Below are positions 1,286 to 35,226 of a stretch of DNA of 64,000 bases, piece after piece. A model generated the notes under the pieces. It was not told where the DNA came from. It saw only the letters and a list, made by a program, of their open reading frames with translations, and searched no databases. This stretch comes from an uncultured Gemmatimonadaceae bacterium (GTDB taxonomy: Bacteria; Gemmatimonadota; Gemmatimonadetes; Gemmatimonadales; GWC2-71-9). The stretch spans positions 1,063 to 65,062 of the forward strand of contig CAZKYO010000015.1 in assembly GCA_964557115.1 (NCBI GenBank). Reading direction: 5' to 3'. How positions within the stretch are numbered: position 1 is the stretch's first letter; each line of letters opens with the position of its first letter. Made by a program: the position numbers and the translations under genes.

Positions 1286-2836
1286 ATGCTCACGACCCGT
1301 TCTGCCCTTCGCGGCCTCCTCTTCCTCCTGCCGATCCTGGCCCTTTCCGGCTGCACCGACGAACAGATCGTCTATCGCGACCGGGAGCCCTACAATCAGC
1401 CTGATGCGGCGGCGGCCGGCTTCCTCGGCTACTACACCGCCTCGGCGAAGAAGACGACGTGCGGCAACTGCCACGTCGGGCACCAGTCCGACTGGGTCGG
1501 CACCAGGCACGCGGGAGCGTGGGAGGACCTCGAGGCCTCCGGTCACGCGAACGACACCTGCCGGCAGTGCCACAGCGTCAACGCCAAGGGCAACTCGGCC
1601 GACGGCACCGTGGGCTGGGACGCCACCAAGGACTCGGTGTACCGCGACGTGCAGTGCGAGTCCTGCCACGGCCCGGGCCTCGAGCACGTGAAGAACCCGG
1701 AGGTTGCGGCGAACATCCCGCTGGCCAACGCGAACATCGCCGACGTCGACGCCAGCTGCGCCAGCTGCCACAACGGGACGCACCATCCGTTCGTCGAGCA
1801 GTGGTCGCTCTCGCGGCACGCGCAGGTCGAGGAGCACACCGTCGGCAACGCCTCGTGTGCTGGCTGCCACGACGGCAAGGCATCGCTGCTGCGGTTCTCG
1901 GGGCAGGATCCGGTGTTTGCCGACAAGGGCGACACCGAGACCTGGCCGGTGACCTGCACCGTCTGCCACGACCCGCACAGCGACCGCAACGAGGGCCAGT
2001 TGCGCAAGCCGGTCAACTCGACCGATCCCGAAGAGAACCTCTGCATGCAGTGCCACATGCGGAAGATCGAGCCCAGCGGCGGCAATTCCCGCGGCAACGC
2101 CCCGCACGCCCCGCAGGGGGCCGTGGTGATCGGCGTCGCCGGATATCGCCCGGCCAACTTTGCCTCGCCCGACGACCAGATCATCTCGACGCACGGGTCA
2201 GGCGCGAATCCGCGACTGTGCGCCGGGTGCCACGTGAACAAGTTCAACGTGACCGATGCCGCCGGCGGCTTCGTCCTCACCTCGGTCGGCCACACCTTCG
2301 GCGCGCTGCCGTGCGTCGATGCCAACGGCGCGCCGATCGGCAACAGCGGCTGCGAGTACACCACGACCGCCCGGACCTTCGTCGGCTGCGTCAACTCGGG
2401 ATGCCATGCCTCGGGGCAGGTTGCGGCCAGCGCGCTCGTGTCGCTCCGGACCCAGATGTCGACCCTGGCCAACCAGCTCTGGGTCGACGGCGACCATGAC
2501 GAGACGATCGACGCCTTCCCGACCGACCAGGGGATGCTGGCGATCATCAAGCGGGACTTCCCGACGGCGATCAACGCCAGCGACAACGTGATCACGCCCG
2601 CCGACGGCGCCGAATTCAACGTGAAGCTGTTTGGCGAGGGTCGGTATGCCAATGGCGACAAGTCCCTCGGCGTCCACAACCCGTTCCTGGCGAAGGCGCT
2701 CCTCGCGGCGAACATCGCCGAGTTGCAGCAGACCTACGGCGTGTCGATCACCGAGCCGGGCGTGGCCGAGCTGGTGCAGTCGTCGATGCAGGCCGCGCGC
2801 GCGCGGTATCCGAACCTGCTGAGCCATCAGCGTTGA
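1286..2836 (+). CDS. Multihaem c-type cytochrome lipoprotein (8 CXXCH + 1 CX4CH)
   Basis: Signal peptide with lipobox LALSGC. Motifs CGNCH, CRQCH, CESCH, CASCH, CAGCH, CTVCH, CMQCH, CAGCH plus CVNSGCH, followed by a haem-free helical C-terminal domain. Confidence 0.85.
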   Translation: MLTTRSALRGLLFLLPILALSGCTDEQIVYRDREPYNQPDAAAAGFLGYYTASAKKTTCGNCHVGHQSDWVGTRHAGAWEDLEASGHANDTCRQCHSVNAKGNSADGTVGWDATKDSVYRDVQCESCHGPGLEHVKNPEVAANIPLANANIADVDASCASCHNGTHHPFVEQWSLSRHAQVEEHTVGNASCAGCHDGKASLLRFSGQDPVFADKGDTETWPVTCTVCHDPHSDRNEGQLRKPVNSTDPEENLCMQCHMRKIEPSGGNSRGNAPHAPQGAVVIGVAGYRPANFASPDDQIISTHGSGANPRLCAGCHVNKFNVTDAAGGFVLTSVGHTFGALPCVDANGAPIGNSGCEYTTTARTFVGCVNSGCHASGQVAASALVSLRTQMSTLANQLWVDGDHDETIDAFPTDQGMLAIIKRDFPTAINASDNVITPADGAEFNVKLFGEGRYANGDKSLGVHNPFLAKALLAANIAELQQTYGVSITEPGVAELVQSSMQAARARYPNLLSHQR

Positions 2837-2837
2837 G

Positions 2838-4853
2838 TTGGCCGTCCAGGCGCCGCTGATGGTCCTGCAGGGGAATCCCCCGGACACCCTCGTCGACTCG
2901 ACGCTGGCGAGGTTCCAGCAGGGAATTCCGGCCGAGGCCTCTCCCCTTCCGGGAGGGGTCTCGGCCGTGATGCGGGTGATCTTCAACGCCCCGCTCTGGG
3001 CCTGGTTGACCGCGATCGTCGTCGGGCTGGTCGTCGCCGTCATGGTGGTCCGGCTGGCCTGGACCAACCGGGTGCGACTGCGCGGGTGGGTCACCACGCG
3101 TGACCGGGGCGCCAGGTTCGCCATGCTGGGCGCGCTGGTGGTGGTGCTTGGCCTGGTCGGCTTCACCGGGCTGTCGGGCTGGAACTACATGCAGCACGAC
3201 AACGACTTCTGCGTCAGCTGCCACGTGATGCAGGGGCCGTGGAACAAGTTCGCGGCGGACGCGGGGAAGCACAGCGACCGCAAGTGCCACGACTGCCACC
3301 AGCAGTCGCTCTACGCCTCGGCGCGCCAGCTCGTCCTCTGGGTCGCCGATCGCCCGCAGGACATCCCCAAGCACGCGCCGGTCCCCAATGCGCGCTGCGA
3401 GTCGTGCCACAACACCAACGGCGACTCGCTCTGGACCCGGATCGAGGAGACGGCGGGCCACCGGACCCATCTCGAGTCCGATTCGCTCAAGGCCCAGGGG
3501 ATCACCTGCGTGACCTGCCACGGCGCCGAGGTGCACGAGTTCCTGCCGGCCAGCCGGACCTGCGGGCAGTCGGGTTGCCACGAGGACCTGCACATCACGC
3601 TTGGCAAGATGGCGAGCCAGACCACTCTGCACTGCAACCAGTGCCACCAGTTCACCGCCGAGGTGCCCCGCCTGGCCACGCGGGACTCGGCGGCCGGGAC
3701 GCTGCGACCGGGATCGCAGCAGTGCTTCGCCTGCCACCAGATGCGCGAGCGGCTGCCGGACTTCGACCTGAGTCGCGATCCCCACGGCGGCACCTGCGGG
3801 ACGTGCCACAATCCCCACACCCAGGACCGGCCCGAGGACGCGGCGAAGACCTGCACCGATGCCGGCTGCCACGCCGACTGGCGCAACGTGTTCTTCCACA
3901 CCGGGCCTGCGCACCGGAAACAGGGGGAGAACTGCCTCACCTGCCACGCGCCGCACGCCGCAAAGGTCGACGCGAGCGACTGCGTCGGCTGCCACAGCGC
4001 GGTGCGCGAACGGGGGATCCGCCAGCTCCGGCCACCGATGCCGTTCGACACCACGGCGGCGCTCCGGCAGGTCTCGGCGCGGCCCGCGGCGCACCAGCCG
4101 CCGACCGGGGCGGCGGTGCTCGACCCGGTCGCACCGGTGGAACCGCCGCCGCGCGGGAAGGGCGACGCGCCGCCCCCGGACGAGCGACCTCCGAGCGCGA
4201 CACACGTTCCGGCCTCCGTCCAGGTTCCACCCGCCGATTCCTTTCCGCACGCCCGTCACCGATCCCTCGCCTGCATCACCTGCCACGTCTCGCCCGGCTC
4301 CCAGTCGGGCCGCCTGACGTTCGAGCGGCCCCGCGGTTGCGACATCTGCCATCACCAGGCGGCCGCGACGAACAAGTGTGAGCGGTGCCACCGGACCGAC
4401 CGGCTGGCGGTGCCCATGGACGCCACGGTGCAGGTGACGGTCGCGGGACACGCGCCGCGCAGCCGGCCCGTCGTGTTCCGGCATCCGACCCACGATTCGC
4501 TCGCGTGCACCGAGTGTCACACCACGGCGGTCTCGCTCGAACCGAGCGCCGCGACCAAGGGCTGCACGGCGTGCCATGCGTCGCACCACACCGCGAATCG
4601 TCAGTGTGCGGCGTGCCACACCGGCGAGTCGCTGCGGACCGCCCACGCGGCGGACGTGCGCGCGAGCCACCAGCGCTGCGATGCTTGCCACGCACCGGCG
4701 ACGGTCGCCCTGCTGACGCCGGACCGGTCGTTCTGCGCGACATGCCACGCCGCGCAGCGTGCCGACCACTATTCGGCGAAGCAGTGCACCACCTGCCACT
4801 TCCTCGCCGACCCATCCGACTATCGGTCCCACCTGGTCGGCGGGAAGGGATGA
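2838..4853 (+). CDS. Membrane-anchored multihaem c-type cytochrome: NapC/NirT-like N-terminus fused to a long haem-rich domain (18 CXXCH + 2 CX4CH)
   Basis: TTG start 1 nt after the preceding stop. Two hydrophobic helices, then FCVSCH and CHDCH as in NapC/NirT/NrfH-type quinol dehydrogenases. Pro-rich linker (about nt 4027-4250), then 9 more CXXCH. Confidence 0.85.
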   Translation: MAVQAPLMVLQGNPPDTLVDSTLARFQQGIPAEASPLPGGVSAVMRVIFNAPLWAWLTAIVVGLVVAVMVVRLAWTNRVRLRGWVTTRDRGARFAMLGALVVVLGLVGFTGLSGWNYMQHDNDFCVSCHVMQGPWNKFAADAGKHSDRKCHDCHQQSLYASARQLVLWVADRPQDIPKHAPVPNARCESCHNTNGDSLWTRIEETAGHRTHLESDSLKAQGITCVTCHGAEVHEFLPASRTCGQSGCHEDLHITLGKMASQTTLHCNQCHQFTAEVPRLATRDSAAGTLRPGSQQCFACHQMRERLPDFDLSRDPHGGTCGTCHNPHTQDRPEDAAKTCTDAGCHADWRNVFFHTGPAHRKQGENCLTCHAPHAAKVDASDCVGCHSAVRERGIRQLRPPMPFDTTAALRQVSARPAAHQPPTGAAVLDPVAPVEPPPRGKGDAPPPDERPPSATHVPASVQVPPADSFPHARHRSLACITCHVSPGSQSGRLTFERPRGCDICHHQAAATNKCERCHRTDRLAVPMDATVQVTVAGHAPRSRPVVFRHPTHDSLACTECHTTAVSLEPSAATKGCTACHASHHTANRQCAACHTGESLRTAHAADVRASHQRCDACHAPATVALLTPDRSFCATCHAAQRADHYSAKQCTTCHFLADPSDYRSHLVGGKG

Positions 4854-6334
4854 TGCCCCGCCGGCTCGTGCTGCCGATCGTCCTCGCCGCCGCGATCACG
4901 GCACCGCTGGCGGCCCAGGGCTACCGCCTGCGCGTCGACAGCCGGATGCAGGGCATCTCGTGGCGCGGCCTCGAACTCGACAGCATCCCGTTCGCGAATG
5001 CCGTGGCGAATGGCCATGGCGGCTACGAGACGCCGGATGGGCTCGAGGCCCGTTGCCTCGGGGCGCAGTGCCTCTACTTCCGCGCCGGCGGCGTGCAGCG
5101 CGGCGTGCCCTGGGTGACGCAAGCCGACGCCTCGCTCTGGGGCTTCGGGTTGCCGGGCCTGAGCGCGCGGGTCAATGCCCGCCTCAGCGAGGACCTGGGC
5201 AAGGACGCCACGTGGCCCGGGAGCGAGCCGGCGTTGCAGCTCTACGAGGCGTACCTCGAGTACGCCACGCCGTCGCTCACCGCCCGCGCCGGCCGTCAGT
5301 TCCTCACGGGACGCCTCGGCAGTTACGGGCTCGACGGTGGGCGGGTCACCTATCGTCTCCCGTCGCTCGGGCTCGAGGCCGGCGCCTACCTGGGCTGGGG
5401 TCTCGCGAGGGGGACGGCCCTCGTCGTCACCGATCCGGCGCTCAACCCGCTCGATGACTTCCAGCCGCGGGATCGTCAGGTCGTGGCCGGGGCCGACGTC
5501 GCGTGGAACGGGCGGTTCGCCGACCTGCGGGCCGAGTATCGCCGAGAGGTCGACCCGGCAGTGCACTATTTCGTGTCCGAGCGCGCCTCGGCGGCGCTGG
5601 CCCTGCGGCCGATGTCCCGCCTCCGCCTGAGCGGGGGCGCGGTGTACGACATGGCGTTCGGCCAGTTCGGCTCGGCCGAGGCGGCGGCGTCGTGGGTATC
5701 GCGGCTGGTCACGGTGTCGGCGGGCGCGCGTCGTTACCGTCCGCTGTTCGACCTGTGGACCATCTGGGGCGCCTTCTCGCCGGCCGGCTACGAGGCGATC
5801 CACGGCGGCGTGGACGTGACGCCCGTGCGGTTCCTCGTGCTGCACGTGCGGGGCGAGAAGTACCGCTTCGACGACACCGAGACTTCCACGCCGCTGGTCG
5901 ACGTGGAGGACCATGGCTGGCGCTACGACGCGTCCGTGACCTGGATGCCCGATGCCCATTGGACCCTCATCGCGGGACACCAGGCCGAGTTCGGTCCCGG
6001 GGCCGCGTCGCTCGGCTACGACGGGCGGGTCATGTGGGAACCGACGGCGCGGCTGGCGCTCTCGGCGCACGCGTCGCGACTGCGGCGGCCGCTCGAGCTG
6101 CGGTTCAGCGACGCGACGCTGACGGCGTTCGGCGGCGACCTGACCCTTCGGCCGGATGATCGCTGGCGGTTCGATCTCGGTGCCTCGCGGGTGCGCGAGG
6201 ATCGCGACCGTCCCGACGCCGCGGCGATCGACTGGGACCAGTGGCGGGTCACGGCACGGATGAGCTGGGTGATCGGCTCATCCGCCGATCGGTTGCCGCT
6301 CCCGCGCGCCATCCCGACCGGGAGCAACCAGTGA
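4850..6334 (+). CDS. Haem-free secreted protein, predicted outer-membrane beta-barrel (porin-like)
   Basis: ATG at 4850 overlaps the upstream TGA (ATGA). Signal peptide MMPRRLVLPIVLAAAITAPLAAQG. Many alternating hydrophobic/polar stretches of strand length (VTYRLPSLGLEAGAYLGWGL, WRYDASVTWMPDAHWTLIAGHQAEF, RWRFDLGASRV). No Cys or haem motif. ORF 4385-6334 was trimmed. Confidence 0.55.
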   Translation: MMPRRLVLPIVLAAAITAPLAAQGYRLRVDSRMQGISWRGLELDSIPFANAVANGHGGYETPDGLEARCLGAQCLYFRAGGVQRGVPWVTQADASLWGFGLPGLSARVNARLSEDLGKDATWPGSEPALQLYEAYLEYATPSLTARAGRQFLTGRLGSYGLDGGRVTYRLPSLGLEAGAYLGWGLARGTALVVTDPALNPLDDFQPRDRQVVAGADVAWNGRFADLRAEYRREVDPAVHYFVSERASAALALRPMSRLRLSGGAVYDMAFGQFGSAEAAASWVSRLVTVSAGARRYRPLFDLWTIWGAFSPAGYEAIHGGVDVTPVRFLVLHVRGEKYRFDDTETSTPLVDVEDHGWRYDASVTWMPDAHWTLIAGHQAEFGPGAASLGYDGRVMWEPTARLALSAHASRLRRPLELRFSDATLTAFGGDLTLRPDDRWRFDLGASRVREDRDRPDAAAIDWDQWRVTARMSWVIGSSADRLPLPRAIPTGSNQ

Positions 6335-7752
6335 CCCGGTTCCTGCGCCGCGTGCTCCCGGTGCTTGTCGTCGGCCTCGTCGCCTGGGGCGTCGCACAGG
6401 CGCGCAATCCCGCGCCGGTGTTCGACCACGCCAAGCACGTGCGGCTCTTCCCGGCATCGTGCGGCGCCTGCCATCTCGGTGCCGAACAGGACGGGGCACC
6501 GATCTACCCGACGGTGACGTCCTGCGCCGCCTGCCATGACGGCGTGGCCAAGTCCGCGGCCGAATGGCAACCACCCACCGCGAGCAAGCCGACCAACCTC
6601 CGCTTCACCCACGCCGCACATCGACGGGAGACCGGCGACACGGTCCGCTGTGCGAGCTGCCATGCGGGGACCGGGGCGCCCGGATCGATCCATCGAGACG
6701 ATCCGGAGCAGTGTGTCTCGTGTCACGAGCCCGGAAAGCGACACCTGACCGCCTCGGATCGCCAATGTGCCCGCTGCCACGTCCCGCTGGCGCGCGCCAC
6801 GGCGCTGTCGACCGACCGGATCGCCGCGTTCCCGACGCCGCCCAACCACCAGGCCACCGATTTCGCCACCGGTGGACACGGTACCCTGGCCGCGCAGGGG
6901 AACGGCGTGGCCGCGAGCTGTGCGACTTGCCACGCGCGGACCTTCTGCGCGGCCTGCCACGTCAACGCCCCCGAGACCGCCGCGATCCAGGCGCTGATGC
7001 CCGACGCGCGCTCGCTCGCGATCAAGGCGGAGCTCAAGGCGCCGGCCACTCACGCGAGCCCGACCTTCCTCGATGCGCACGGCAGGCAGGCCGCCGGTGA
7101 TCCGGCGCGGTGCGCGACCTGTCACGCCCAGCCGAGTTGCACCGCCTGTCACGTCGCGCCCGGCCCCAAGGCGGTGCGCGCGATGGCAAGGCCCGGCGAG
7201 GGGCGGGGCACCGGTGCGGTCGTCACGCGACACGCGCCCGCGACCCACACGGCGGCCTTCACCGAGGGGCACGGACCCGACGCCGCGGCGTCCCCCCGCA
7301 CCTGCGAGACGTGCCATCGCCGCGACCAGTGCCTCACCTGTCACCGCGGGTCGCCGACCACGGGGGCCAACTACCACCCGGCGAACTTCCTGACGCGCCA
7401 CCCGGCTGCCACCTACGCGCGCCAGACGAGTTGTGCCGACTGCCACAACGTGCAGCAGTTCTGCGTCACCTGCCACGCCTCGGCGGGTCTCAACGCCCAC
7501 AACACGCTGCGGGCGGGACCCTACCACGATGCCAAGGGTGCCTTCGTGCTGAACCACGGCCAGGCGGCGCGGCAGTCGCTCGAGTCGTGCGTCTCCTGCC
7601 ACGTCGAGCGCGACTGCACCTCCTGCCACTCGGCGCTCGGCGGACGGCGCTTCTCGCCGCATGGCCCGGGCTTCGACGCCGACCGGCTCCGTCGCCGGAA
7701 CCCCGAGATGTGCATCGCCTGCCACGGCCGGGCGATCCCGGGAGCGAGCTGA
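6331..7752 (+). CDS. Multihaem c-type cytochrome (16 CXXCH, five doubled CXXCH units)
   Basis: GTG at 6331 overlaps the upstream TGA (GTGA). N-terminal signal/anchor VTRFLRRVLPVLVVGLVAWGVAQA. 16 CXXCH, including 5 pairs spaced CXXCH-x4/5-CXXCH, each preceded by an H-x-n-C c7/c3-like context. Confidence 0.85.
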   Translation: MTRFLRRVLPVLVVGLVAWGVAQARNPAPVFDHAKHVRLFPASCGACHLGAEQDGAPIYPTVTSCAACHDGVAKSAAEWQPPTASKPTNLRFTHAAHRRETGDTVRCASCHAGTGAPGSIHRDDPEQCVSCHEPGKRHLTASDRQCARCHVPLARATALSTDRIAAFPTPPNHQATDFATGGHGTLAAQGNGVAASCATCHARTFCAACHVNAPETAAIQALMPDARSLAIKAELKAPATHASPTFLDAHGRQAAGDPARCATCHAQPSCTACHVAPGPKAVRAMARPGEGRGTGAVVTRHAPATHTAAFTEGHGPDAAASPRTCETCHRRDQCLTCHRGSPTTGANYHPANFLTRHPAATYARQTSCADCHNVQQFCVTCHASAGLNAHNTLRAGPYHDAKGAFVLNHGQAARQSLESCVSCHVERDCTSCHSALGGRRFSPHGPGFDADRLRRRNPEMCIACHGRAIPGAS

Positions 7753-7870
7753 GAAGAGCGAACAGAGAAGAGAGAACGGAGAACCGAGGTGGGGACGCGT
7801 GCACCGGGACCGGATGGTCGCGCGCCGCTGTCCTCTCTCTTCTCTCTTCTCTCTTCTCTTTTCCGTGTTC
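7751..7870. repeat. Heptad-periodic GA-rich arm / CT-rich arm imperfect inverted repeat between convergent genes
   Basis: GAGAAGA GCGAACA GAGAAGA GAGAACG GAGAACC ... TCTCTTC x3 TCTTTTC CGTGTTC. The arms are partly complementary. Confidence 0.7.
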
Positions 7871-10325: not shown

Positions 10326-10661
10326 ATGAAGCGATTCGCCGTCGTGCTGGCGATGTCCCTGGTCCAACTGCAGCCGCTCGCGGCCGCGGCGGCCTGCCAG
10401 CAGCATCATGCGGCGGCGGCATCGCACCACTGCACCTCCCCGGCGGACCAGCACGGCATGGCCGGCGACTCGCACCACGACCACTCGATGGCCGACGAGT
10501 GCCAGGCGTCCCAGGCATGTGCCCCGACCGTCCCTGCCGTGACCTCCGGCACCACCCCGGTGACCACCGTGGCGGAGCGGGTCGAGGCGCCGAGCCTGGC
10601 CGGCCCCGACGTGCGCGGCAGCCTCCTCGCGGTGCTTGCCTTCCACCCTCCCAAGCCCTGA
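10326..10661 (+). CDS. Small secreted His/Cys-rich protein (putative metal-binding), first gene of the RND metal-efflux operon
   Basis: Signal-like N-terminus MKRFAVVLAMSLVQLQPLAAAAA, then HHAAAASHHCTSPADQHGMAGDSHHDHSMADECQASQAC. Sits directly upstream of and co-directional with the cusCBA-like genes. Confidence 0.5.
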   Translation: MKRFAVVLAMSLVQLQPLAAAAACQQHHAAAASHHCTSPADQHGMAGDSHHDHSMADECQASQACAPTVPAVTSGTTPVTTVAERVEAPSLAGPDVRGSLLAVLAFHPPKP

Positions 10662-10751
10662 CCTCCATCCAGTCCTGAACGTGACACGTCCGTCGAGTTG
10701 ATCGGCGGGCATCACCTGACGCATCGCGGGCCACGCCCGCGGGATGAGGTC

Positions 10752-12035
10752 ATGACACAACACCTCTTCACCGGTCGGTTCCGGTGGGCCGTGCCGCTTG
10801 TGGCACTGCTCGGCGGCAGCGCACCGGTATCCCTCGCGGCGCAGGTTGCGCCGGACACCCTGCGGCTGGCCGACGCGATCGCGGCCGCCCGCGCCGACAA
10901 CCCGGCGCACCTGGCGGCGCGACTGCGGGCCGACGCGGCGGCGGAGGCGATCGCCCCGGCGGGGGCGATGCCCGATCCGGAGCTCTCGCTGGGGTTGATG
11001 AACCGTCCGATCGACGGCTTCGGCAGCGGCGAGCCGATGACGATGAACCAGGTCGGCTTGGCGCAGCTCTTCCCGTGGCCCGGCAAGCGCGCGGCGGCGG
11101 GAGACCGCGCCCGGTGGATGGCGACTTCGGCGAGTCTCACCGCCGACGAGATCGCGGCCGACGTGGCGGGGCGCCTCGCGGTGCAGTACTACGAGGCCGC
11201 CTGGCTCGATCGCGCCATTGCCATCTCGACCGACACCCGGCGACTGCTGCGCGAACTGGTGCGCGTGGCCGAGGCGCGTTACGCGGTCGGTGAGGTGCCG
11301 CAGCAGGACGTATTCCGTTCCCAGGTTGCCGTGGCGCAGCTCGGCGAACAGCTCGAGATGCTGGCGGCCGAACGCGACGCCGCCGCCGCCCGGCTCAACG
11401 CCCTGATGGGACGCGATCCCTTCCTCGCGGTGGCGGCACTGGAACTCCCCTCGCTGCCGAGCGGCCCGGCGCAGGGCGACAGCGCGATCGTCGGCGCGGT
11501 GGCCGACCGGCCGGCGATCCGGGCCGCCGAGGCGATGGCCGAGGCGGCCACTGCCGGCGCGCGCGAGGCCGACCGGGCCTTCTATCCCGACCTCCGGCTC
11601 GGCGTCGTGTATGGCCAGCGTCCCCAGTACGGCGACATGGCCACGCTCATGCTCGGGGTGCAGTTGCCGCTGCACACGGGGTCGCGCCAGGCCCCTCAAC
11701 GCGATGCGATGCTGGCGATGGCGGAGGCGGCGCGAGCCGATGCCACCGACCTCCGGCAGGCGACGCTCGCGGAGATCCGTGCCGCGCGCGCCGAGACGCT
11801 GCGCGCCCGGGAGCGGGTGTCGCTCTACGACACCGGCATCCTGCCGCAGGCGCGCGCCGCCGTCGACGCCTCGCTCGCGGCCTACCGGGTCGGGCGGGTC
11901 GACTTCGCCACGGTGCTCGACAACGAACTCACCCTCAATCGCTACACCATCGACCGGGCGCGTTTGGTGGCGCGCCATCACCAGGCGATGGCCCGCATCG
12001 CCGCCCTGCTTGGCAGGACGGGAGGTGACGCATGA
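10752..12035 (+). CDS. TolC-family outer membrane efflux protein (CusC/CzcC-like)
   Basis: ORF trimmed to the ATG at 10752 (MTQHLFTGRF, signal peptide ending LAAQ). Two-repeat helical OMF pattern. ATGA overlap with the following adaptor gene. Confidence 0.8.
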   Translation: MTQHLFTGRFRWAVPLVALLGGSAPVSLAAQVAPDTLRLADAIAAARADNPAHLAARLRADAAAEAIAPAGAMPDPELSLGLMNRPIDGFGSGEPMTMNQVGLAQLFPWPGKRAAAGDRARWMATSASLTADEIAADVAGRLAVQYYEAAWLDRAIAISTDTRRLLRELVRVAEARYAVGEVPQQDVFRSQVAVAQLGEQLEMLAAERDAAAARLNALMGRDPFLAVAALELPSLPSGPAQGDSAIVGAVADRPAIRAAEAMAEAATAGAREADRAFYPDLRLGVVYGQRPQYGDMATLMLGVQLPLHTGSRQAPQRDAMLAMAEAARADATDLRQATLAEIRAARAETLRARERVSLYDTGILPQARAAVDASLAAYRVGRVDFATVLDNELTLNRYTIDRARLVARHHQAMARIAALLGRTGGDA

Positions 12036-13276
12036 CCGCTCGGATCCTGATGCCGCTCCTCGCGGCGATCGCCGTGACCCTCGCCGCGTGCGGCAAGGAC
12101 GACGCCGGGTCGCCGATGCCCGGGATGACGGCGGCGGAACACGCCATGATGTCGAGTGGCGGGATGTCGGGGATGACCGACAGCACCGGCATGACGATGC
12201 GCCAGGCGGTGCACCTCACGCCGGCGCAGGCCCAGGCGCTCGGGGTGGTCTACACCACCGTCGGCCGCGAGACGCTCACCAGGACGGTGCGCACCGTCGG
12301 CACGATCCAGCCGTCAGAGGATCGCGTGGTTGACGTGACGCCGAAGATCGACGGCTTTGTCGAGCGGCTGTTCGTCAACACCACCGGCGCCAGCGTGCGG
12401 CGGGGCGACCCGATCCTGTCGCTCTACTCGCCGGCACTCGTCGCGGCGCAGGAGGAGTACCTCACCGCGAAGCGCCTGGTCGCGCAACTCCCCGTCGACG
12501 CCGGGGAGCCACTGGAGGCGGCGCGCTCGACACTCCGCGCCGCCGGCGACCGGCTGCGCTACTGGGACATTCCCGAGGCCCAGATCGCCCGGCTCGAGGC
12601 GAGCGGCCAGGCCACCCGCACGCTGGCGCTGGTCGCGCCGGTGTCGGGCGTGGTGCTGGTCAAGGACGTGATCGAGGGCCAGCGCGTGATGCCTGGGCAG
12701 CGGCTTTACCAGGTCGCCGACCTGAGCGTGGTGTGGGTGGAGGGGGAGGTGTTCGAGCAGGACCTGGCGCTGGTGCGCGAGGGGATGCAGGCGCACATCG
12801 AGATCGCCGCCCGGCCGGGTGAGCACCTGATGGGGCGGGTGTCGTTCGTGTACCCCACCGTCGATCCGACCAGCCGGACGGCGCGGATCCGGATCACGAT
12901 GCCGAACCCCGGCATGCAGCTCAAGCCGGGGATGTTCGCGACAATCTTCCTCGACGCGGTGGTGGGGCGCGACGTGGTGGTGGTGCCGCGCTCCGCGGTG
13001 GTGGTGACGGGCACCCGCAACCTGGTGTTCGTGCGCGACTCCAGCGGGGTGCTCCAGCCGCGCGAGGTGGTGCTCGGGGCACGGACCGCCGACCAGGTCG
13101 AGGTGCTGTCGGGGCTCGCAGCCGGCGAAGAGATCGTCGGCTCGGCCAACTTCCTGATCGACGCCGAGTCGCGGCTCGGCGGTGGCGGCGGCACGATGCC
13201 CGGGATGCAGCACGGCGCGATCGACCAGCCGATGCCCGCTGGCGACACCACGGGAGGTCACCGTCATGATCCGTGA
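12032..13276 (+). CDS. RND efflux periplasmic adaptor (CusB/CzcB family) with Met-rich N-terminus
   Basis: Lipobox TLAACG. Met-rich segment MPGMTAAEHAMMSSGGMSGMTDSTGMTM. Membrane-fusion-protein core (LVAPVSGVVL..., VVVPRSAVV). Confidence 0.85.
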   Translation: MTARILMPLLAAIAVTLAACGKDDAGSPMPGMTAAEHAMMSSGGMSGMTDSTGMTMRQAVHLTPAQAQALGVVYTTVGRETLTRTVRTVGTIQPSEDRVVDVTPKIDGFVERLFVNTTGASVRRGDPILSLYSPALVAAQEEYLTAKRLVAQLPVDAGEPLEAARSTLRAAGDRLRYWDIPEAQIARLEASGQATRTLALVAPVSGVVLVKDVIEGQRVMPGQRLYQVADLSVVWVEGEVFEQDLALVREGMQAHIEIAARPGEHLMGRVSFVYPTVDPTSRTARIRITMPNPGMQLKPGMFATIFLDAVVGRDVVVVPRSAVVVTGTRNLVFVRDSSGVLQPREVVLGARTADQVEVLSGLAAGEEIVGSANFLIDAESRLGGGGGTMPGMQHGAIDQPMPAGDTTGGHRHDP

Positions 13277-16200
13277 CCTGATCTCCTGGTCGGTGCGCAA
13301 CCGCGCCCTGGTGCTCTTCGCGACGGCGGGGATCATCGGGGCCGGCCTCTGGTCGGCGCGCACCACGCCGCTCGACGCGATCCCCGACCTGTCCGACGTG
13401 CAGGTGATCGTCCAGACCGACTACGCTGACCAGGCGCCGCAGATCGTCGAGGACCAGGTGACCTACCCGGTCACCTCAGAGATGCTCAAGGTGCCGGGCG
13501 CACGGGTCGTGCGCGGCTACTCGTTCTTCGGGCTAAGCCTGGTCTACGTGATCTTCGAGGACGGGACCGACCTCTACTGGGCGCGCTCGCGGGTGCTGGA
13601 GTACCTCAACGGCATCCGGCGCCAGTTGCCGGCCGGCGCCGAGCCGACCCTTGGTCCCGACGCAACCGGGGTGGGCTGGGTGTTCGAGTACACGCTGGAG
13701 TCGGATTCGCTCGACCTGGCCGAGCTGCGCAGCCTGCAGGACTGGAACATCCGCTACCAGCTCACGGCGGTGCCGGGGGTCTCCGAGGTGGCGTCGCTGG
13801 GCGGCTTCGTGAAGCAGTACCAGGTCGAGGTCGATCCGGAGCGGCTCCGGGCATTCGACATCCCGGTGACCCGGGTGGCCGCCGCGATCGGCGACCACAA
13901 CATGGACATCGGCGCCCGGGTGCTGGAGATGGGCGGCCGGGAGTACATGATCCGCGGCCTCGGCTACCTCGAGGGGGTGGCCGACATCGAGAACGTCTCG
14001 GTCGGGACCGCCGACAACGGCACCCCGATCCGGGTGGCCGACGTGGCGACGGTGCAGGTCGGCCCGGCGCCGCGGCGCGGCGCGGCCGACCTCGACGGCA
14101 AGGGCGAGGTGGTGGCCGGCATCGTGGTGATGCGCTACGGCTCCGACGCCCTGGCCACCATCGAGGCGGTCAAGACGCGCCTCAAGGCGGTTGAGGCGTC
14201 GCTGCCGCCCGGCGTGCGGCTGCGGGTCGCCTACGACCGCAGCGACCTGATCCACCGGGCGATCGACACGCTGCGCGACAAGCTGCTGGAGGAGTCGCTG
14301 ATCGTGGCGCTGGTGGCGATCCTCTTCCTGCTCCACGTCCGCTCGGCGCTGGTCGCGATCGTGGTGCTCCCGATCGGGATCCTCCTCGCCTTCATCGTGA
14401 TGCGATTGCTCGGCATCGATGCCAATATCATGAGTCTCGGCGGGATCGCGATCGCGATCGGCGCCATGGTCGACGGCGCCATCGTGATGATCGAGAACAT
14501 GCACAAGCATCTCGAACGCGCCGGCCCCGAGGTCGACCGCTGGGAGGTGGTGCTCCGGAGCGCCCGGCAAGTGGGCCCGCCGCTCTTCTACTCGCTGCTG
14601 ATCATCACCTGCAGCTTCCTGCCGGTCTTCGCCCTGGAGGCGCAGGAGGGACGGCTCTTCAAGCCGCTGGCGTTCACCAAGACGTTCGCGATGGCCGCCG
14701 CGGCGCTGCTGTCGGTGACGCTGGTGCCGGTGCTGATGGGCTACCTGATCCGGGGCCGGATCCGGTCGGAACGGGAGAACCCGGTCAACCGCTGGCTGCA
14801 GTGGCTCTACCGGCCGGTGATCGACTTCACCCTGCGCCGCCCGTGGCTGGTGGTGGCGGGTGGCGTGGCGGTGCTGGCGGTGACGGTGCTGCCCTGGCGG
14901 CGGCTCGGCAGCGAGTTCATGCCGCAACTGCACGAGGGATCGATCCTCTTCATGCCGACCACGGTGCCGGGGGTGTCGATCGCCGAGGCGAACGCGATCA
15001 TGCGGCACCAGGACAGCATGCTCGCGTCGTTCCCCGAGGTCGAGCGGGTGCTCGGCAAGACCGGGCGCGCGGCCACCGCGACCGACCCAGCGCCGCTCGA
15101 CATGTACGAGACCACGCTCACCCTGGCGCCGGAGTCGAAGTGGCGGCCGGGAATGACCTACGACCGCCTGCTCGCCGAGCTCGACAGCGCGGTGCGGCTG
15201 CCCGGCGTCACGAATGCCTGGACGATGCCGATCAAGGGACGGATCGACATGCTCGCCACCGGGATCCGGACCGCGGTCGGGATCAAGATCTTCGGCCCCG
15301 ATCTCGACACGCTGCAGGCACTGGGTGAGCGGGTCGAGCGGCTGATGCAGGGCGTGCCCGGGACCCGGAGTGCCTTCGCCGAGCGGGGGGTGTCGGGCTA
15401 CTACGTGGACATCGACATCGACCGCGCCGAGGCGGCACGCTACGGGCTCAACGTCGGCGAGATCCACGACGCGATCATGGCCACGGTCGGCGGGATGAAC
15501 GCGGCCACGACCGTCGAGCGGCGGGAGCGCTATCGGGTGAACGTGCGCTACCCGCGGGAGCTGCGCGACGACGTCCAGAAGCTGCGCGAGGTGGTGCTGC
15601 CGACCCGGAGCGGGGCCCAGATTCCGCTCGGCCAGGTCGCCACGGTCGCGGTCCGTCAGGGGCCGATGGCGGTGAAGACCGAGAACGCCTTCCCGGTCAC
15701 CACGGTGTTCGTGGACATCGACGCCTCCGATGTGGGCGGCTACGTGCGCACGGCCCGGCAGGTCGTCAATGCCGGTCTGGTGCTGCCCACGGGCTATTCG
15801 CTGGTCTGGAGCGGCCAGTACGAGTTCATGCAGCGGGTCGGCAGCCGGCTGCGGCTGGTGGTGCCGGTCACGCTGGCGATCATCTTCCTGCTCCTCTACC
15901 TCAATTTCCGCGGGGTGACCGAGTCGCTGATCGTGATGCTCTCGGTGCCGTTCGCGCTGGTCGGCGGGGTGTGGTACCTCTGGCTCGCGGGGTACAACAC
16001 CAGCGTGGCGGTGTGGGTCGGCTTCATCGCGCTGGCAGGCGTCGCGGCGGAGACGGGCGTGGTGATGCTGATCTACCTCGACGAGGCGTTCGCACGACGC
16101 AAGGCCGAGGGGCTGATGCGCGGCCCGCCCGACGTGGCGGAGGCGGTCCGCTCCGGCGCGGTCGACCGGCTGCGGCCCAAGGTGATGACCGTCGTGGCGA

Positions 16201-16388
16201 TCATGGCCGGGCTGGCGCCGATCCTCTGGAGCCACGGCACCGGCGCCGACGTGATGAAGCGGATCGCCGCGCCGATGGTGGGCGGCATGGTCACCTCGAC
16301 CGTGCTCACGCTGGTGGTGATTCCGGCGATCTACCTGATCTGGCGTCGGCGGGAGGTTGGACGCCAAACGCCAAACGCTGAACGCTGA
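13266..16388 (+). CDS. Heavy-metal efflux RND transporter (CusA/CzcA family)
   Basis: About 1040 aa with a 12-TM RND architecture. N-terminus MIRDLISWSVRNRALVLFATAG is typical of the HME-RND family. Overlaps the adaptor gene by 11 nt. Confidence 0.9.
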   Translation: MIRDLISWSVRNRALVLFATAGIIGAGLWSARTTPLDAIPDLSDVQVIVQTDYADQAPQIVEDQVTYPVTSEMLKVPGARVVRGYSFFGLSLVYVIFEDGTDLYWARSRVLEYLNGIRRQLPAGAEPTLGPDATGVGWVFEYTLESDSLDLAELRSLQDWNIRYQLTAVPGVSEVASLGGFVKQYQVEVDPERLRAFDIPVTRVAAAIGDHNMDIGARVLEMGGREYMIRGLGYLEGVADIENVSVGTADNGTPIRVADVATVQVGPAPRRGAADLDGKGEVVAGIVVMRYGSDALATIEAVKTRLKAVEASLPPGVRLRVAYDRSDLIHRAIDTLRDKLLEESLIVALVAILFLLHVRSALVAIVVLPIGILLAFIVMRLLGIDANIMSLGGIAIAIGAMVDGAIVMIENMHKHLERAGPEVDRWEVVLRSARQVGPPLFYSLLIITCSFLPVFALEAQEGRLFKPLAFTKTFAMAAAALLSVTLVPVLMGYLIRGRIRSERENPVNRWLQWLYRPVIDFTLRRPWLVVAGGVAVLAVTVLPWRRLGSEFMPQLHEGSILFMPTTVPGVSIAEANAIMRHQDSMLASFPEVERVLGKTGRAATATDPAPLDMYETTLTLAPESKWRPGMTYDRLLAELDSAVRLPGVTNAWTMPIKGRIDMLATGIRTAVGIKIFGPDLDTLQALGERVERLMQGVPGTRSAFAERGVSGYYVDIDIDRAEAARYGLNVGEIHDAIMATVGGMNAATTVERRERYRVNVRYPRELRDDVQKLREVVLPTRSGAQIPLGQVATVAVRQGPMAVKTENAFPVTTVFVDIDASDVGGYVRTARQVVNAGLVLPTGYSLVWSGQYEFMQRVGSRLRLVVPVTLAIIFLLLYLNFRGVTESLIVMLSVPFALVGGVWYLWLAGYNTSVAVWVGFIALAGVAAETGVVMLIYLDEAFARRKAEGLMRGPPDVAEAVRSGAVDRLRPKVMTVVAIMAGLAPILWSHGTGADVMKRIAAPMVGGMVTSTVLTLVVIPAIYLIWRRREVGRQTPNAER

Positions 16389-16409
16389 ACGAGGGACGAG
16401 AGACGAGAG
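16361..16409. repeat. Seven tandem heptads ACGCCAA x2, ACGCTGA x2, ACGAGGG, ACGAGAG x2 spanning the cusA stop codon
   Basis: Seen directly. The first four heptads encode the last residues (..RQTPNAER*) of the RND pump. Confidence 0.7.
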
Positions 16410-16458
16410 GGATGGCGGGGGCGGGTTCGACCGAGGCAACCCAACGCGATCGAGGCGC

Positions 16459-18549
16459 ATGATGCATTCAGGCAATGAACAGATGCACAGGCACGATCAC
16501 TCCCGGGGCGGCCCGCGGCAGGCCGACGGCGGAGCCGTCTCCGGCCACGACCATGCGTCGCCCGGGCACGGCGGCGGGCATGACAAGCACGCCGGCCATT
16601 CGCCGGCGATGTTTCGCGACCGGTTCTGGCTGTCGTTGTTGATGACCCTGCCGGTGGTCTACTGGTCGGAGCATGTCCAGGAGCTGCTCGGCTATCGCGC
16701 GGTCGCCGTGCCGGGCGCGGCCTGGATCGGGCCGGTGCTCGCCACGGCGGTGTTCCTGTACGGCGGCCTGGTCTTCCTGCAGGGCGCGGTGCACGAGCTT
16801 CGGAACCGGCTGCCCGGGATGATGACGCTCATTTCCCTGGCCATCACGGTCGCCTTCGTCTTCAGCTGGACCGTGCAGCTCGGGGTGATCGCCGCTGGGG
16901 CACTGTGGTGGGAGCTCGCCACGCTGGTGACGATCATGCTGCTCGGTCACTGGATCGAGATGCGATCGATCAACCAGGCCCAGGGGGCACTCAAGGAACT
17001 GGCGAAGCTGCTGCCGGACAGCGCCACCCGTCTCGTGGACGACCACGAGGAAGAGGTGCCGGTGGCCGAGCTGCGAGCCGGCGACCTGGTGCTGATCCGG
17101 CCGGGGCAGGCGATCCCCGCTGACGGGCTCGTTCGCCGGGGCACCAGCCAGGTGAACGAGGCGATGATCACCGGCGAATCACGACCGGTGACGAAGCGCG
17201 ACGGGTCTACGGTCACGGCCGGCACCGTCAATGGCGAGGGGTCACTCCGGGTCGAGGTGACGGGAGCCGGCGAACAGACCCGCCTCTCGGGCATCATGCG
17301 CCTGGTGGCCCAGGCGCAGCAATCGAAGTCTCGTGCCCAGGCGCTCGCCGATCGCGCGGCCCAGTGGCTCACCGCGATCGCCATCGTGGCGGCCCTTCTG
17401 ACGCTCGCGGCATGGCAGCTCCAGGGTGCGGCGATCGACTTTGCCGTGGTGCGGATGGTCACGGTGCTCGTCATCGCCTGCCCCCATGCCCTCGGGCTCG
17501 CGGTGCCGCTGGTGGTGGCGATCTCCACCACGCTGGGGGCCCGCAACGGCCTCCTGGTTCGTGACCGGCGCGGACTCGAGGAGGCGCGCCTCCTCGATGC
17601 GGTGATCTTCGACAAGACCGGGACGCTCACGCTGGGCGAGTTCCGGGTGGTCGATCTTGCCGTCTCCGATGGCGTTGATCCTGACGAAGCGCTGGGCGTC
17701 GCCGCGGCCATCGAGGCGGAATCCGAGCACCCGATCGCGCGCGGCATCGTGAAGACCGCCGAGGAGCGGGGCATTGCCAGGCGGGAGGCCACCAGGTTCC
17801 GGAACCTCACCGGCCGTGGCGTCACCGCGGCGGTGGAGGGGACGGCGTACCTGCTTGGCGGCCCATCGCTGCTGCGGAGCGAGACGGTCGAGGTCCCGGC
17901 CGATCTGCAGGCGGCGGGGCGCCGGGCGGAGCAGCGAGGCCAGGCCGCAATTCACCTGGTCCGGGACGGCCGCTCGATCGCCCTGTTCACCGTGGCCGAC
18001 GCCATCCGGGAGGAGAGCCGGGCAGCGGTCGAGGCGCTCCACGCGCGGGGGATCGAGGTTGCGATGCTGACCGGCGACGCCCGCGCCGTGGCCGATGCCG
18101 TGGCGGCCGAGCTGGGGATCGACACGGTGTTTGCGGAGGTCCTGCCCGAAGAGAAGGCCGCCAAGGTGCAGGAACTGCAGGCGGCCGGCAAGCGGGTGGC
18201 GATGGTCGGGGACGGGGTCAATGATGCCCCGGCGCTGGCAACCGCGGATCTCGGCATCGCGATCGGTGCCGGCGCCGATGTGGCAGTCGAGGCCGGGCAC
18301 ATCGTCCTCGTCCGGTCCGACCCGCGGGACATCCCCCGGATCGTGTCGCTGTCCCGAGCAACCTACCGCAAGATGGTCCAGAATCTCTGGTGGGCCACCG
18401 GCTACAACATCATCGCGATTCCGCTCGCCGCCGGCGTGCTCGCGAGCAGGAACGTGCTCCTCACCCCGGCGATGGGAGCGGTGCTGATGAGTCTCAGCAC
18501 AGTGGTGGTGGCGATCAACGCGCAGCTGCTGCGACGAGTGCCGCTTTGA
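16459..18549 (+). CDS. copB: Copper-translocating P1B-type ATPase, CopB-like (His-rich N-terminus, CPH motif)
   Basis: TGES, CPH (VIACPHALG), DKTGTLT and GDGVNDAPAL motifs. N-terminal HRHDHS...GHDHASPGHGGGHDKHAGH. ORF trimmed to the ATG at 16459. Confidence 0.88.
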   Translation: MMHSGNEQMHRHDHSRGGPRQADGGAVSGHDHASPGHGGGHDKHAGHSPAMFRDRFWLSLLMTLPVVYWSEHVQELLGYRAVAVPGAAWIGPVLATAVFLYGGLVFLQGAVHELRNRLPGMMTLISLAITVAFVFSWTVQLGVIAAGALWWELATLVTIMLLGHWIEMRSINQAQGALKELAKLLPDSATRLVDDHEEEVPVAELRAGDLVLIRPGQAIPADGLVRRGTSQVNEAMITGESRPVTKRDGSTVTAGTVNGEGSLRVEVTGAGEQTRLSGIMRLVAQAQQSKSRAQALADRAAQWLTAIAIVAALLTLAAWQLQGAAIDFAVVRMVTVLVIACPHALGLAVPLVVAISTTLGARNGLLVRDRRGLEEARLLDAVIFDKTGTLTLGEFRVVDLAVSDGVDPDEALGVAAAIEAESEHPIARGIVKTAEERGIARREATRFRNLTGRGVTAAVEGTAYLLGGPSLLRSETVEVPADLQAAGRRAEQRGQAAIHLVRDGRSIALFTVADAIREESRAAVEALHARGIEVAMLTGDARAVADAVAAELGIDTVFAEVLPEEKAAKVQELQAAGKRVAMVGDGVNDAPALATADLGIAIGAGADVAVEAGHIVLVRSDPRDIPRIVSLSRATYRKMVQNLWWATGYNIIAIPLAAGVLASRNVLLTPAMGAVLMSLSTVVVAINAQLLRRVPL

Positions 18550-29311: not shown

Positions 29312-30144
29312 AGGGAGGGCCGGATCCCGAGACGGCCCCGGTACTCGTGCTGGTGGCGGTGCAGGACCTCGTCAACCTGGCCTCCTGCATCCGGGTGGCG
29401 AAGAACTTCGGGATCACCGAGATCCGGCTGGTGCGGCCGGAGTGTCCCCTCGACCCGGTGCGGCTCGAGGGGATCGCCCACCACGCCGGCGACGTCATTG
29501 CGGCGTTGCAGGTCTTCGACGATCTCGATGCGGCGATGGCGGACCTCACCTACGTCCAGGCGCTCACCGGGCGGGAGCGGACCGCGAAGCGCACCATGCT
29601 CCGTCCCCGCGCGGGCGCCGCGGCGCTCCTCGAGCGGGCGGCCAGCGGACGGGTCGGGATCCTGGCGGGCCGGGAGGACCACGGCCTGCAGAACGAGGAA
29701 ATCGACCGCTGCGACGCGCTGGTCACGATCAGCGCCAATCCTGGCTATACCTCGCTGAACCTCGCCCAGGCGACCGGGATCTACGCCTACGAGACGTGGC
29801 TGGCCCGCGGCGGCGACGGGATCGCGTTCAAGGCCCCGCGCCGCAAGGCGCCGCTGGCTTCCCACGAGGAGCTGGAGGCCACCTTCCGCGACTGGGAGGC
29901 CTCGATGCACGCCATCGAGTTCTTCAAGAAGCGCGAGACGGAACTGGTGATGCGCGGATTCCGGGAGATCCTGTTCCGGGCCCGGCTGGATCGGCGCGAG
30001 GTGGGGCTCTTCCGGGCCATCGGACTGGAGATCGGCCACTTCCTCCGCCGCAAGGGGGTCCTCCCGCCGCTGCCGCCCCGCCATGGCCGGCGGGAGGACG
30101 CGGGGCCGGACGCCCCGGTTGAACCGACCCGCCGGAGGGACTAA
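29308..30144 (+). CDS. SpoU/TrmH-family RNA 2'-O-methyltransferase (TrmJ-like)
   Basis: GTG at 29308 forms a GTGA overlap with the preceding stop. NLASCIRVAKNFGI, GREDHGL and SLNLAQA SPOUT motifs. It is the only convincing part of the 908-aa ORF 27418-30144. Confidence 0.7.
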   Translation: MKGGPDPETAPVLVLVAVQDLVNLASCIRVAKNFGITEIRLVRPECPLDPVRLEGIAHHAGDVIAALQVFDDLDAAMADLTYVQALTGRERTAKRTMLRPRAGAAALLERAASGRVGILAGREDHGLQNEEIDRCDALVTISANPGYTSLNLAQATGIYAYETWLARGGDGIAFKAPRRKAPLASHEELEATFRDWEASMHAIEFFKKRETELVMRGFREILFRARLDRREVGLFRAIGLEIGHFLRRKGVLPPLPPRHGRREDAGPDAPVEPTRRRD

Positions 30145-30159
30145 GTTTGCGCCCGGCAA

Positions 30160-30187
30160 GGGAGTCGCGGCCTCGGCTCCCTCTTTT
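30160..30187 (+). terminator. Putative intrinsic terminator after the methyltransferase gene
   Basis: GGGAGTCG-loop-CGGCTCCC stem followed by TCTTTT. Confidence 0.45.
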
Positions 30188-30205
30188 CGCGGGACACGCG
30201 CGTTC

Positions 30206-30219
30206 GTGAATTCGTTCAC
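30206..30219. promoter_or_regulatory. CRP/FNR-family-like dyad GTGA-N6-TCAC upstream of actA
   Basis: cGTGAattcgtTCACa lies about 30 nt upstream of the actA ATG in a locally AT-richer stretch. Confidence 0.3.
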
Positions 30220-30250
30220 AAGCACGGATCCTCTTCGGCGGTCAGCAGAT

Positions 30251-30826: not shown

Positions 30827-30827
30827 C

Positions 30828-33863: not shown

Positions 33864-33864
33864 G

Positions 33865-35225
<1,361 letters not shown>

Positions 35226-35226
<1 letters not shown>

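Follow-up and report, generated by a model that had tools for sequence, protein, structure and literature searches.

The stretch of DNA considered here, referred to below as the window, comprises 64,000 nucleotides (nt) of contig CAZKYO010000015.1 from an uncultured Gemmatimonadaceae bacterium (assembly GCA_964557115.1), with a G+C content of ~72%. Its gene at 2838..4853 (+ strand), here gene B, encodes a membrane-anchored cytochrome with 20 haem motifs. On balance the evidence favours, with modest confidence, a reading in which four proteins would form a porin-cytochrome electron conduit, conserved across Gemmatimonadales, with B at its inner-membrane end. B is predicted to be the second gene of a translationally coupled four-gene operon, A-B-C-D. 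The operon resembles a hitherto undescribed route for electrons leading from the cell membrane out to the surface, and the new element, to judge from the sequence, is a porin-cytochrome conduit whose inner-membrane component, NrfH-headed and with 20 haems, is built in. The conserved operon is the strongest evidence for a trans-envelope role of B. It was overlooked in the first-pass annotation, which described B alone, as a NapC/NirT-like quinol dehydrogenase head fused through a Pro-rich linker to a long haem wire.

A Conserved Porin-Cytochrome Operon

The operon comprises the following genes, the locations of A and D being read from sequence only.

Gene A, 1286..2836, + strand: multihaem lipoprotein of 516 amino acids (aa) with a signal peptide, the lipobox LSGC, eight CXXCH motifs and one CX4CH motif.
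Gene B, 2838..4853, + strand: membrane-anchored cytochrome of 671 aa with 20 haem motifs.
Gene C, 4850..6334, + strand: predicted outer-membrane beta-barrel of ~24 strands (494 aa, signal peptide present, haem motifs absent).
Gene D, 6331..7752, + strand: secreted cytochrome of ~473 aa, with 16 CXXCH motifs and a signal peptide that ends in AQA.

These are the sole genes between a 270-nt gap upstream and a convergent DUF1684 gene downstream, and together they encode 45 haem sites. C starts with an ATG that overlaps the TGA stop of B (ATGA), and D with a GTG at 6331 that overlaps the stop of C (GTGA). A promoter scan at the operon found nothing. A weak terminator-like stem-loop lies 60 nt past gene D (7812..7833, + strand), such structures being no more numerous than in shuffled sequence.

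Relatives of B are encoded in 454 GTDB species genomes (one genome per species scanned), of which the best 80 were inspected. Gene order was compared across 82 loci, namely those of the 80 genomes and two long metagenome contigs. The order A-B-C-D is found in both contigs and, as far as the sequenced contig extends, in essentially every one of the 80 genome loci, with A upstream of B in nearly all loci compared and D downstream of C, and the outer flanks of the operon are not conserved. At a distant locus a B relative of 34% identity, with one helix and 20 haems, belongs to a B-C-D core that adjoins the CcmF/G/H haem-maturation genes. At another locus (L042) a C-like gene (31% identity) and a D-like gene lie upstream of B rather than downstream, an arrangement that may represent a second, diverged copy of the module.

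Gene C matches no Pfam or NCBIfam family, and its 1,178 relatives are all annotated as hypothetical, almost all of the named ones coming from Gemmatimonadota. Its AlphaFold2 model (predicted local distance difference test, pLDDT, 82; predicted template modelling score, pTM, 0.73) has ~24 beta strands, and Foldseek searches with this model return outer-membrane barrels exclusively, the best being the 24-strand ushers FimD and PapC (TMq 0.46-0.49), with MtrB at TMq 0.40. On the basis of this model C is confidently predicted to be an outer-membrane beta-barrel. The product of gene A matches the Pfam models Paired_CXXCH, c7 and c554, has a non-haem C-terminal region of ~190 aa, and scores below threshold against the DmsE/MtrA-type model (52 bits, cut-off 192). 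The product of gene D matches the MtrC/MtrF domain II/IV model of Pfam (49.4 bits, cut-off 30) as well as Cytochrome_C7.

Gene B Is a Single Conserved Gene

The open reading frame (ORF) of B is open over 2838..4853 (+ strand) and yields 671 aa from a TTG start; an alternative ATG at 2859 would yield 664 aa, identical to database protein P0001. Its CXXCH motifs number 18 (aa 125, 150, 187, 224, 266, 296, 320, 366, 382, 479, 501, 514, 557, 576, 590, 614, 633 and 650) and its CX4CH motifs two (aa 242 and 339), exactly the count given in the first-pass annotation, against a mean of 0.48 and a maximum of 5 motifs in 2,000 shuffles of the protein. All 40 of the 40 cysteines of B fall within these 20 motifs.

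A protein search returned >1,364 relatives of B, nearly all full length and 50-66% identical. The few that bear names come from Gemmatimonadota/Gemmatimonadales and are called "hypothetical," "cytochrome c3 family," or "nitrate/TMAO reductase-like tetraheme cytochrome c subunit." The best 80 genomes are likewise almost all Gemmatimonadales or Gemmatimonadaceae, with the closest relative 73% identical. Two family alignments, one of 23 members and one of 72 (the latter relatives at 50-66% identity), show all 20 haem motifs to be invariant, together with a further 21-22 His and three Met residues. By their number these additional residues would suffice as distal ligands for haems that are mostly bis-His. 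The same complement of 18 plus 2 motifs recurs in 110 of 120 relatives surveyed for their motifs and linkers.

The long ORF could in principle be an artefact, either of two genes joined by a frameshift or of mis-assembly at the Pro-rich region, and the occurrence of the 11-haem N-terminal part of B as a separate gene in another lineage (see below) lends this some plausibility. Against it, single co-linear ORFs over aa ~35-667 are found in 80 independent genomes and hundreds of metagenome contigs, GC3 (G+C at third codon positions) is 0.91 throughout the ORF, the same as in the adjacent genes, and the linker is present in 23 of 23 aligned relatives and could be delimited in 87 of the 120 surveyed. 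The frameshift, two-gene and assembly-artefact readings are excluded by the family alignments, the invariance of the motifs and the full-length relatives, and an artefact can be given practically no weight. B is a genuine conserved gene of Gemmatimonadales.

Two Multihaem Modules Joined by a Linker

From its sequence, B is best described as an 11-haem membrane cytochrome followed by a linker and a 9-haem c7/c3-type module. Its parts, all on the + strand, are as follows.

2838..2975, + strand (aa 1-46): N-terminal tail with the conserved sequence PPLPGGV..LR.xFN, predicted to be periplasmic, charge +2/-3 (alignments, charge count).
2976..3191, + strand (aa 47-118): hairpin anchor formed by helix 1 and helix 2, with an Arg-rich loop between them that is predicted to be cytoplasmic, charge +6/-1 (hydropathy, AlphaFold2, charge count).
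3192..3662, + strand (aa 119-275): conserved six-haem head, haem 1 being FCxxCHxM (matches to PF03264, TIGR03153 and 2J7A_C; superfamily alignment).
3663..4028, + strand (aa 276-397): the last five haems (7-11) of the 11-haem N-module (Pfam Cytochrome_C7 match over aa 262-325; alignment with P0263).
4029..4232, + strand (aa 398-465): linker, with a conserved PPxPFDTTxALR start and then a hypervariable Pro/Ala-rich stretch with RGKGDxPPP.
4233..4850, + strand (aa 466-671): 9-haem C-module of c7/c3 type, built of FxHxxH...CxxCH units (profile and cytochrome c3 matches).

The N-module also exists on its own. Protein P0263, of 414 aa and with two helices and 11 haems, is encoded by a complete, mid-contig gene (locus L087, 2830-4074), aligns with B aa 31-402 (38% identity, E=4e-88) and ends at the start of the linker. 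Because this stand-alone N-module ends exactly there, the linker is read as marking a true module boundary. The description of B as a fusion was therefore right, but the fused unit corresponds to the 11-haem module and is larger than the tetrahaem NapC head that had been proposed. P0263 itself is without a linker, a C-module or a porin neighbour and adjoins Hpt/response-regulator genes, and its first motif, CLSCHTLH, has lost the methionine of CXXCHxM.

Over the region of the C-module, a full-length profile of the family matches the dodecahaem cytochrome GSU1996 (PDB 3OV0) at E=1e-7, and also HmcA, nine-haem cytochrome c and c7; matches to c7/c3-type cytochromes range from E=1e-7 to 3e-5. Haems are spaced at ~25 aa per haem in the N-module and ~23 in the C-module, a density that, at the level of sequence, matches known wire-like cytochromes.

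The Pro/Ala-rich segment stands where it had been placed earlier (nt ~4029-4232, aa 398-465) and is a genuine linker of variable length rather than an assembly artefact. Its variable core in B has 55 aa, of which 16 are Pro and nine Ala. Across the delimited relatives the linker is 34-107 aa long (median 41; 58 in B by the same delimiters) and consists of 21% Pro and 14% Ala, and in the AlphaFold2 model of B its pLDDT is <50. A G[KR]G[DE] motif, usually RGKGDxPPP, recurs in 50 of the 87 delimited linkers; the fuller form, RGKGDxPPP(D/E)(L/R)PP, lies in B at aa ~435-445 (4140-4170 in the window) and hints at a docking site. Seven relatives (P0043, P0047, P0049, P0051, P0053, P0054, and P0055) have a 21st CXXCH within the linker, so that this segment can evidently gain a haem site.

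Membrane Anchor and NrfH-Like Head

Both hydrophobic N-terminal helices reported at first pass are borne out, by hydropathy (~aa 47-76 and 94-118) and by an AlphaFold2 hairpin over aa 40-115 with pLDDT 80-96. Helix 2 (aa 94-118) stops seven residues short of C125, and helix 1 is an extra helix upstream of it. The helices contain no conserved His in either the 23- or the 72-member alignment, which makes a b-haem in B unlikely. Attachment of c-type haem occurs solely at the periplasmic side, and since the loop between the helices is strongly positive, the predicted topology is N-terminus out, loop cytoplasmic and haem domain out; by this prediction the N-terminal tail and the haem domain must both be periplasmic. 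The conservation of PPLPGGV..LR.xFN in the tail indicates that it is translated and under selection.

The head that follows belongs to the NapC/NirT superfamily. PF03264 (NapC/NirT) is matched with 26.7 bits by full-length B and 31.4 bits by the head alone, above the Pfam gathering threshold of 24.1 bits, and is also matched by 13 of 14 relatives of B. For each of three profiles the top match among solved structures is NrfH of D. vulgaris (2J7A_C), at E=2.5e-6 with the family head profile, 3.2e-9 with the full-length profile, and 4.6e-13 with a head profile made from distant relatives. In NrfH the Met of CXXCHxM is the proximal ligand of haem 1. Haem 1 of B is CVSCHVM (aa 125-131) with M131 invariant, and FCxxCHxM occurs at this haem in 120 of 120 relatives. 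Haem 5 of B is bound by CX4CH, where distant relatives have CX2CH. The head of B is accordingly read, from sequence comparison, as a divergent member of the NapC/NirT/NrfH superfamily and not as an NrfH orthologue, with a quinol site that is partly recognisable. Of the earlier assignment, superfamily membership stands but the plain tetrahaem unit does not; a compact tetrahaem NapC domain (four CXXCH in ~150-200 aa) was rejected, the conserved head having six haems and B as a whole 20 motifs. PDB 6QVM ("multiheme cytochrome cf," 681 aa) was also considered as a full-length relative and rejected: the head profile matches its haems 1-2 only (E=1e-5), and it is absent from the results with the full-length profile.

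The same head occurs on many other long cytochromes. A profile of aa 86-262 of B, searched against 1.84 billion cluster representatives, gave 437 matches at E<=1e-3 and 74 at E<=1e-30. Among the best 150 representatives, 86 carry >=10 haem motifs and 39 carry >=18, with a maximum of 34, distributed as follows.

10-12 haem motifs: 38 representatives.
13-17 haem motifs: 9 representatives.
18-21 haem motifs: 27 representatives.
22-30 haem motifs: 8 representatives.
More than 30 (up to 34) haem motifs: 4 representatives.

Haem 1 is of the CXXCHxM type in 113 of these 150, and alignment of distant members shows the six-haem head to be conserved. The names found for ten representatives place them in Gemmatimonadota, Myxococcales ("NapC/NirT family cytochrome c"), and Chloroflexota. 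Fusions of this length had been called unusual, which holds for characterised systems but not for the databases, where long extensions on an NrfH-type head are common; none of them seems to have been characterised. At locus L086 (1507-5702), the gene for a 667-aa relative with a B-type head and 30 CXXCH motifs comes before one for a 731-aa protein in which collagen-like repeats (PF01391) are joined to an MtrC/MtrF-type cytochrome domain. Short relatives of 290 aa, with a B-type head and 12 haems, cluster with NrfD/4Fe-4S, NapC/NirT-type and Rieske/cytochrome b genes at two loci (L084 and L085) whose G+C content of 45% indicates a very different organism.

Comparison with Known Electron-Transfer Systems

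With NrfH (PDB 2J7A/2VR0), NapC, NirT, and CymA, B has in common a helix directly before haem 1, a haem 1 of the CXXCHxM type (as in NrfH), homologous haems 1-2 and a periplasmic haem domain. It differs in having 20 haems where NrfH has four, in its additional N-terminal helix and tail, and in its setting, a porin-cytochrome operon without an NrfA-type partner. As far as sequence comparison goes, B shares just the entry module with NrfH, NapC, and CymA.

Other membrane-bound multihaem cytochromes resemble B in part. ImcH (GSU3259) of G. sulfurreducens is an inner-membrane multihaem cytochrome with a NapC/NirT-like region and a proposed quinol oxidase for extracellular electron transfer (EET); it has three helices, an atypical CX3CH first motif, 6-10 haems in ~500 aa, and no adjacent porin gene (PMC6295460). 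B is likewise a multihaem cytochrome of the inner membrane, has more than one helix and contains a NapC/NirT-like stretch, but its two helices, CXXCHxM motif, lack of CX3CH, 20 haems and adjacent barrel gene set it apart from ImcH as described. CbcL, MtrH, and MtoC are quinone-pool proteins fused to 3-23 c-type haem motifs, some of them encoded beside mtrAB or mtoAB, and their anchor is a six-helix, HydC/FdnI-type dihaem b domain (PMC6295460). They share with B the fusion of a membrane end, in B putatively linked to the quinone pool, to many c-type haems, whereas the anchor of B is a two-helix hairpin without conserved His. The Gram-positive Carboxydothermus ferrireducens has a 20-haem putative quinol oxidase with a different type of anchor.

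At the level of the operon, there are parallels with MtrCAB (PDB 6R2Q) and the Geobacter Pcc (OmaB-OmbB-OmcB), whose gene sets likewise pair a large outer-membrane barrel with two multihaem cytochromes, one secreted and one a lipoprotein. The likeness to MtrCAB may extend to the MtrC/MtrF domain II/IV of D and the MtrB-like fold of C (TMq 0.40). In contrast to these systems, the barrel C belongs to no sequence family, A and D fall below the MtrA/DmsE cut-offs, and the 20-haem B is encoded in the operon, MtrCAB and Pcc having no such inner-membrane component. Shewanella employs a separate CymA together with soluble shuttles, in place of an in-operon cytochrome such as B. PCC3 clusters also bring together a porin, a long cytochrome and an inner-membrane component. 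Besides the porin and an extracellular cytochrome, they encode a long cytochrome of the periplasm (median 21 haems), for which a role in bridging that compartment has been proposed; their inner-membrane component is a distinct, conserved 5-helix protein of ~300 aa bearing WX3HX13H, and the clusters were reported mostly from Proteobacteria (He et al., 2017; PMC5566968). In the present operon, by contrast, the long cytochrome B has its own NrfH-type anchor and there is no 5-helix protein among A-D.

The C-module is built of the same c7/c3-type units as GSU1996 (a dodecahaem c7-repeat protein), HmcA and nine-haem cytochrome c, with similarly few residues per haem; those proteins are soluble and periplasmic, whereas the C-module is tethered by the linker to a membrane-anchored cytochrome. 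The joining of an anchor, a flexible Ala/Pro-rich linker and a distant redox or interaction domain is familiar from Rhodobacter cytochrome c_y and the Pro-rich periplasmic spacer of TonB; in B, by contrast, the linker lies between two multihaem modules rather than between an anchor and a single-haem domain. A literature search found no description of this Gemmatimonadales operon, most subscription journals lying outside the search, and the nearest accounts are general surveys.

A Proposed Path Across the Envelope and Its Alternatives

If B is the inner-membrane end of the conduit, haem 1, with its CXXCHxM motif and membrane-adjacent position, would pass electrons to, or take them from, the quinone pool; electrons would then travel through the 11-haem N-module, and the 9-haem C-module would pass them to D and A at barrel C. 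The Pro-rich segment had been proposed as a spacer; a linker it is, but a disordered one, which cannot carry electrons and can only tether or loop. The C-module would therefore either pack on the N-module, with the linker as a loop, or, as a tethered arm, move between N-module and outer-membrane complex. A linker of such hypervariable length fits a tether. A soluble periplasmic shuttle would then be unnecessary, and flow could be outward (to Fe or Mn oxides, humics or partner cells) or inward from these. In MtrA (PMC5566968) and GSU1996, 10-12 haems cover roughly 80-120 Å. By an analogy of length with these two, the 20 haems of B could approach the width of the periplasm only if linearly arranged. 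A more specific version, in which one polypeptide would oxidise quinol and hand electrons to the outer-membrane complex by swinging its 9-haem arm on the Pro-rich tether, with no soluble shuttle and with EET as a core trait of Gemmatimonadales, is put forward tentatively and is in itself rather doubtful.

Several observations weigh against B as the quinol-linked end of such a conduit. The PF03264 match spans only model positions 10-73 of 174, that is, the helix and haems 1-2, and B scores 36.8 bits against the NCBIfam NrfH equivalog TIGR03153, below its cut-off of 134.2 bits. The robust part of the alignment with NrfH is confined to the same helix and two haems, the placement of haems 3-4 being profile-dependent: with the family profile, NrfH haem 3 falls on head haem 3, and with the broader one NrfH haems 3-4 fall on head haems 5-6. 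The quinol-site residues Lys82 and Asp89 of D. vulgaris NrfH (2J7A/2VR0 numbering) are not conserved in B. In the HMMER alignment, over a weakly aligned stretch, Asp89 stands opposite an invariant or near-invariant Gln164 and Lys82 falls in an 8-residue gap, with NrfH Arg88 opposite Arg163 of B; quinol chemistry is for this reason no more than inferred for B. The AlphaFold2 model of B, from the 72-sequence alignment, has a mean pLDDT of 55 and is unreliable over the haem region, with the hairpin alone confident, and a Foldseek search with it gave no meaningful match, the model being too poor. To judge by sequence, A looks MtrA-like and the non-lipoprotein D has the MtrC-type domain, the opposite of the Mtr layout. 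Finally, the best 80 of the 454 genomes are all metagenome-assembled genomes.

The residues not kept and the confinement of NrfH homology to the helix and haems 1-2 also speak for B as a membrane-tethered periplasmic relay without quinone chemistry of its own, the NrfH-like part serving as anchor and entry haem and electrons arriving from another respiratory complex (bc-type or like Alternative Complex III, ACIII). ACIII-type genes do lie in the window (30083-35226), and the short B-headed relatives cluster with NrfD/FeS and Rieske/cytochrome b genes. Such a relay is nevertheless unlikely, given that the CXXCHxM haem, a hallmark of the NrfH quinol site, is kept by 120 of 120 relatives as well as by 113 of the 150 representatives from the wider search, and that no gene for a quinol-oxidising partner is conserved beside the operon, whose flanks vary.

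The conduit might also run inward, with Fe(II) or Mn(II) outside the cell, or a partner cell, as the electron source and B acting as a quinone reductase or feeding an aerobic chain, as proposed for CymA/ImoA in Sideroxydans. Gemmatimonadota in culture are mostly aerobes, which would suit this direction. Proteins of the NapC/NirT and CbcL types are known from metal reducers as well as from metal oxidisers (PMC6295460), and PCC3/PCC4 clusters with long periplasmic cytochromes are found in Fe(II) oxidisers (PMC5566968). The sequence itself, however, sets no direction, and no Cyc2, carbon-fixation or other oxidiser markers were seen beside the operon; inward flow is considered quite improbable.

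Other Genes in the Window

The ACIII-type block at 30083-35226, possibly extending to 37577, could by its sequence provide a second quinol-oxidising route in the same genome. It comprises the following genes.

30083-30826: c3/c7-type multihaem protein, 247 aa.
30828-33863: fused molybdopterin-like and 4Fe-4S protein, 1,011 aa.
33865-35226: NrfD-type membrane protein.

A metal-efflux block at 10326-18549 is made up as follows.

10326-10661: small His-rich secreted protein, no Pfam match.
10698-12035: likely outer-membrane factor (sequence reading only).
12032-13276: CusB/HlyD-type adaptor.
13182-16388: AcrB/CusA-type resistance-nodulation-division (RND) pump.
16357-18549: P-type ATPase.

The position of this Cus-type RND efflux system and P-type ATPase, 3-11 kb downstream of the operon, raises a further explanation of B, as a periplasmic multi-electron reductase or electron store (capacitor) that would serve soluble substrates or metal detoxification with no path across the outer membrane. 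A P-type ATPase lies beside the operon in 4 of 82 loci. In the other 78, however, the association with metal efflux is absent; the B sequence contains no CXXCK or other catalytic-haem motif, and the barrel gene C is translationally coupled and co-conserved with B. This explanation is very improbable. A link between the operon and metal efflux, to which a P-type ATPase beside the operon at locus L001 also pointed, was dropped, such an ATPase being near in just those four loci and RND genes in 0 of 82.

Two further genes of the window appear unrelated to B. One, at 47251-49542, encodes a fusion of a sucrose-6F-phosphate-phosphohydrolase-type (S6PP) domain and a glycosyltransferase of family 20 (trehalose-6-phosphate synthase type), and the other, at 51903-54002 on the minus strand, encodes a HerA-like helicase.

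Implications for Gemmatimonadota

Gemmatimonadota are abundant in soils, sediments, and activated sludge, and a literature search outside most subscription journals found nothing that links them to EET. If the conduit proposed here is real, a self-contained four-gene module with 45 haem sites, an NrfH-type entry and a family-less barrel would constitute a new type of porin-cytochrome pathway. Barrel C has no match in Pfam or NCBIfam, so that detection tools relying on Mtr, Pcc, and Cyc2 models would probably miss the operon, which could itself serve as a marker for genome surveys. The occurrence of the NrfH-type head with 10 to 34 haems shows that membrane-anchored "long" cytochromes are common and largely unstudied, and the two-module, linker-joined design of B offers a natural test case for a continuous wire against a tethered shuttle across the periplasm. 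Should the swinging-arm version prove true, the conservation of the operon in hundreds of Gemmatimonadales species would make EET a core and hitherto unrecognised trait of a phylum abundant in soil and wastewater.

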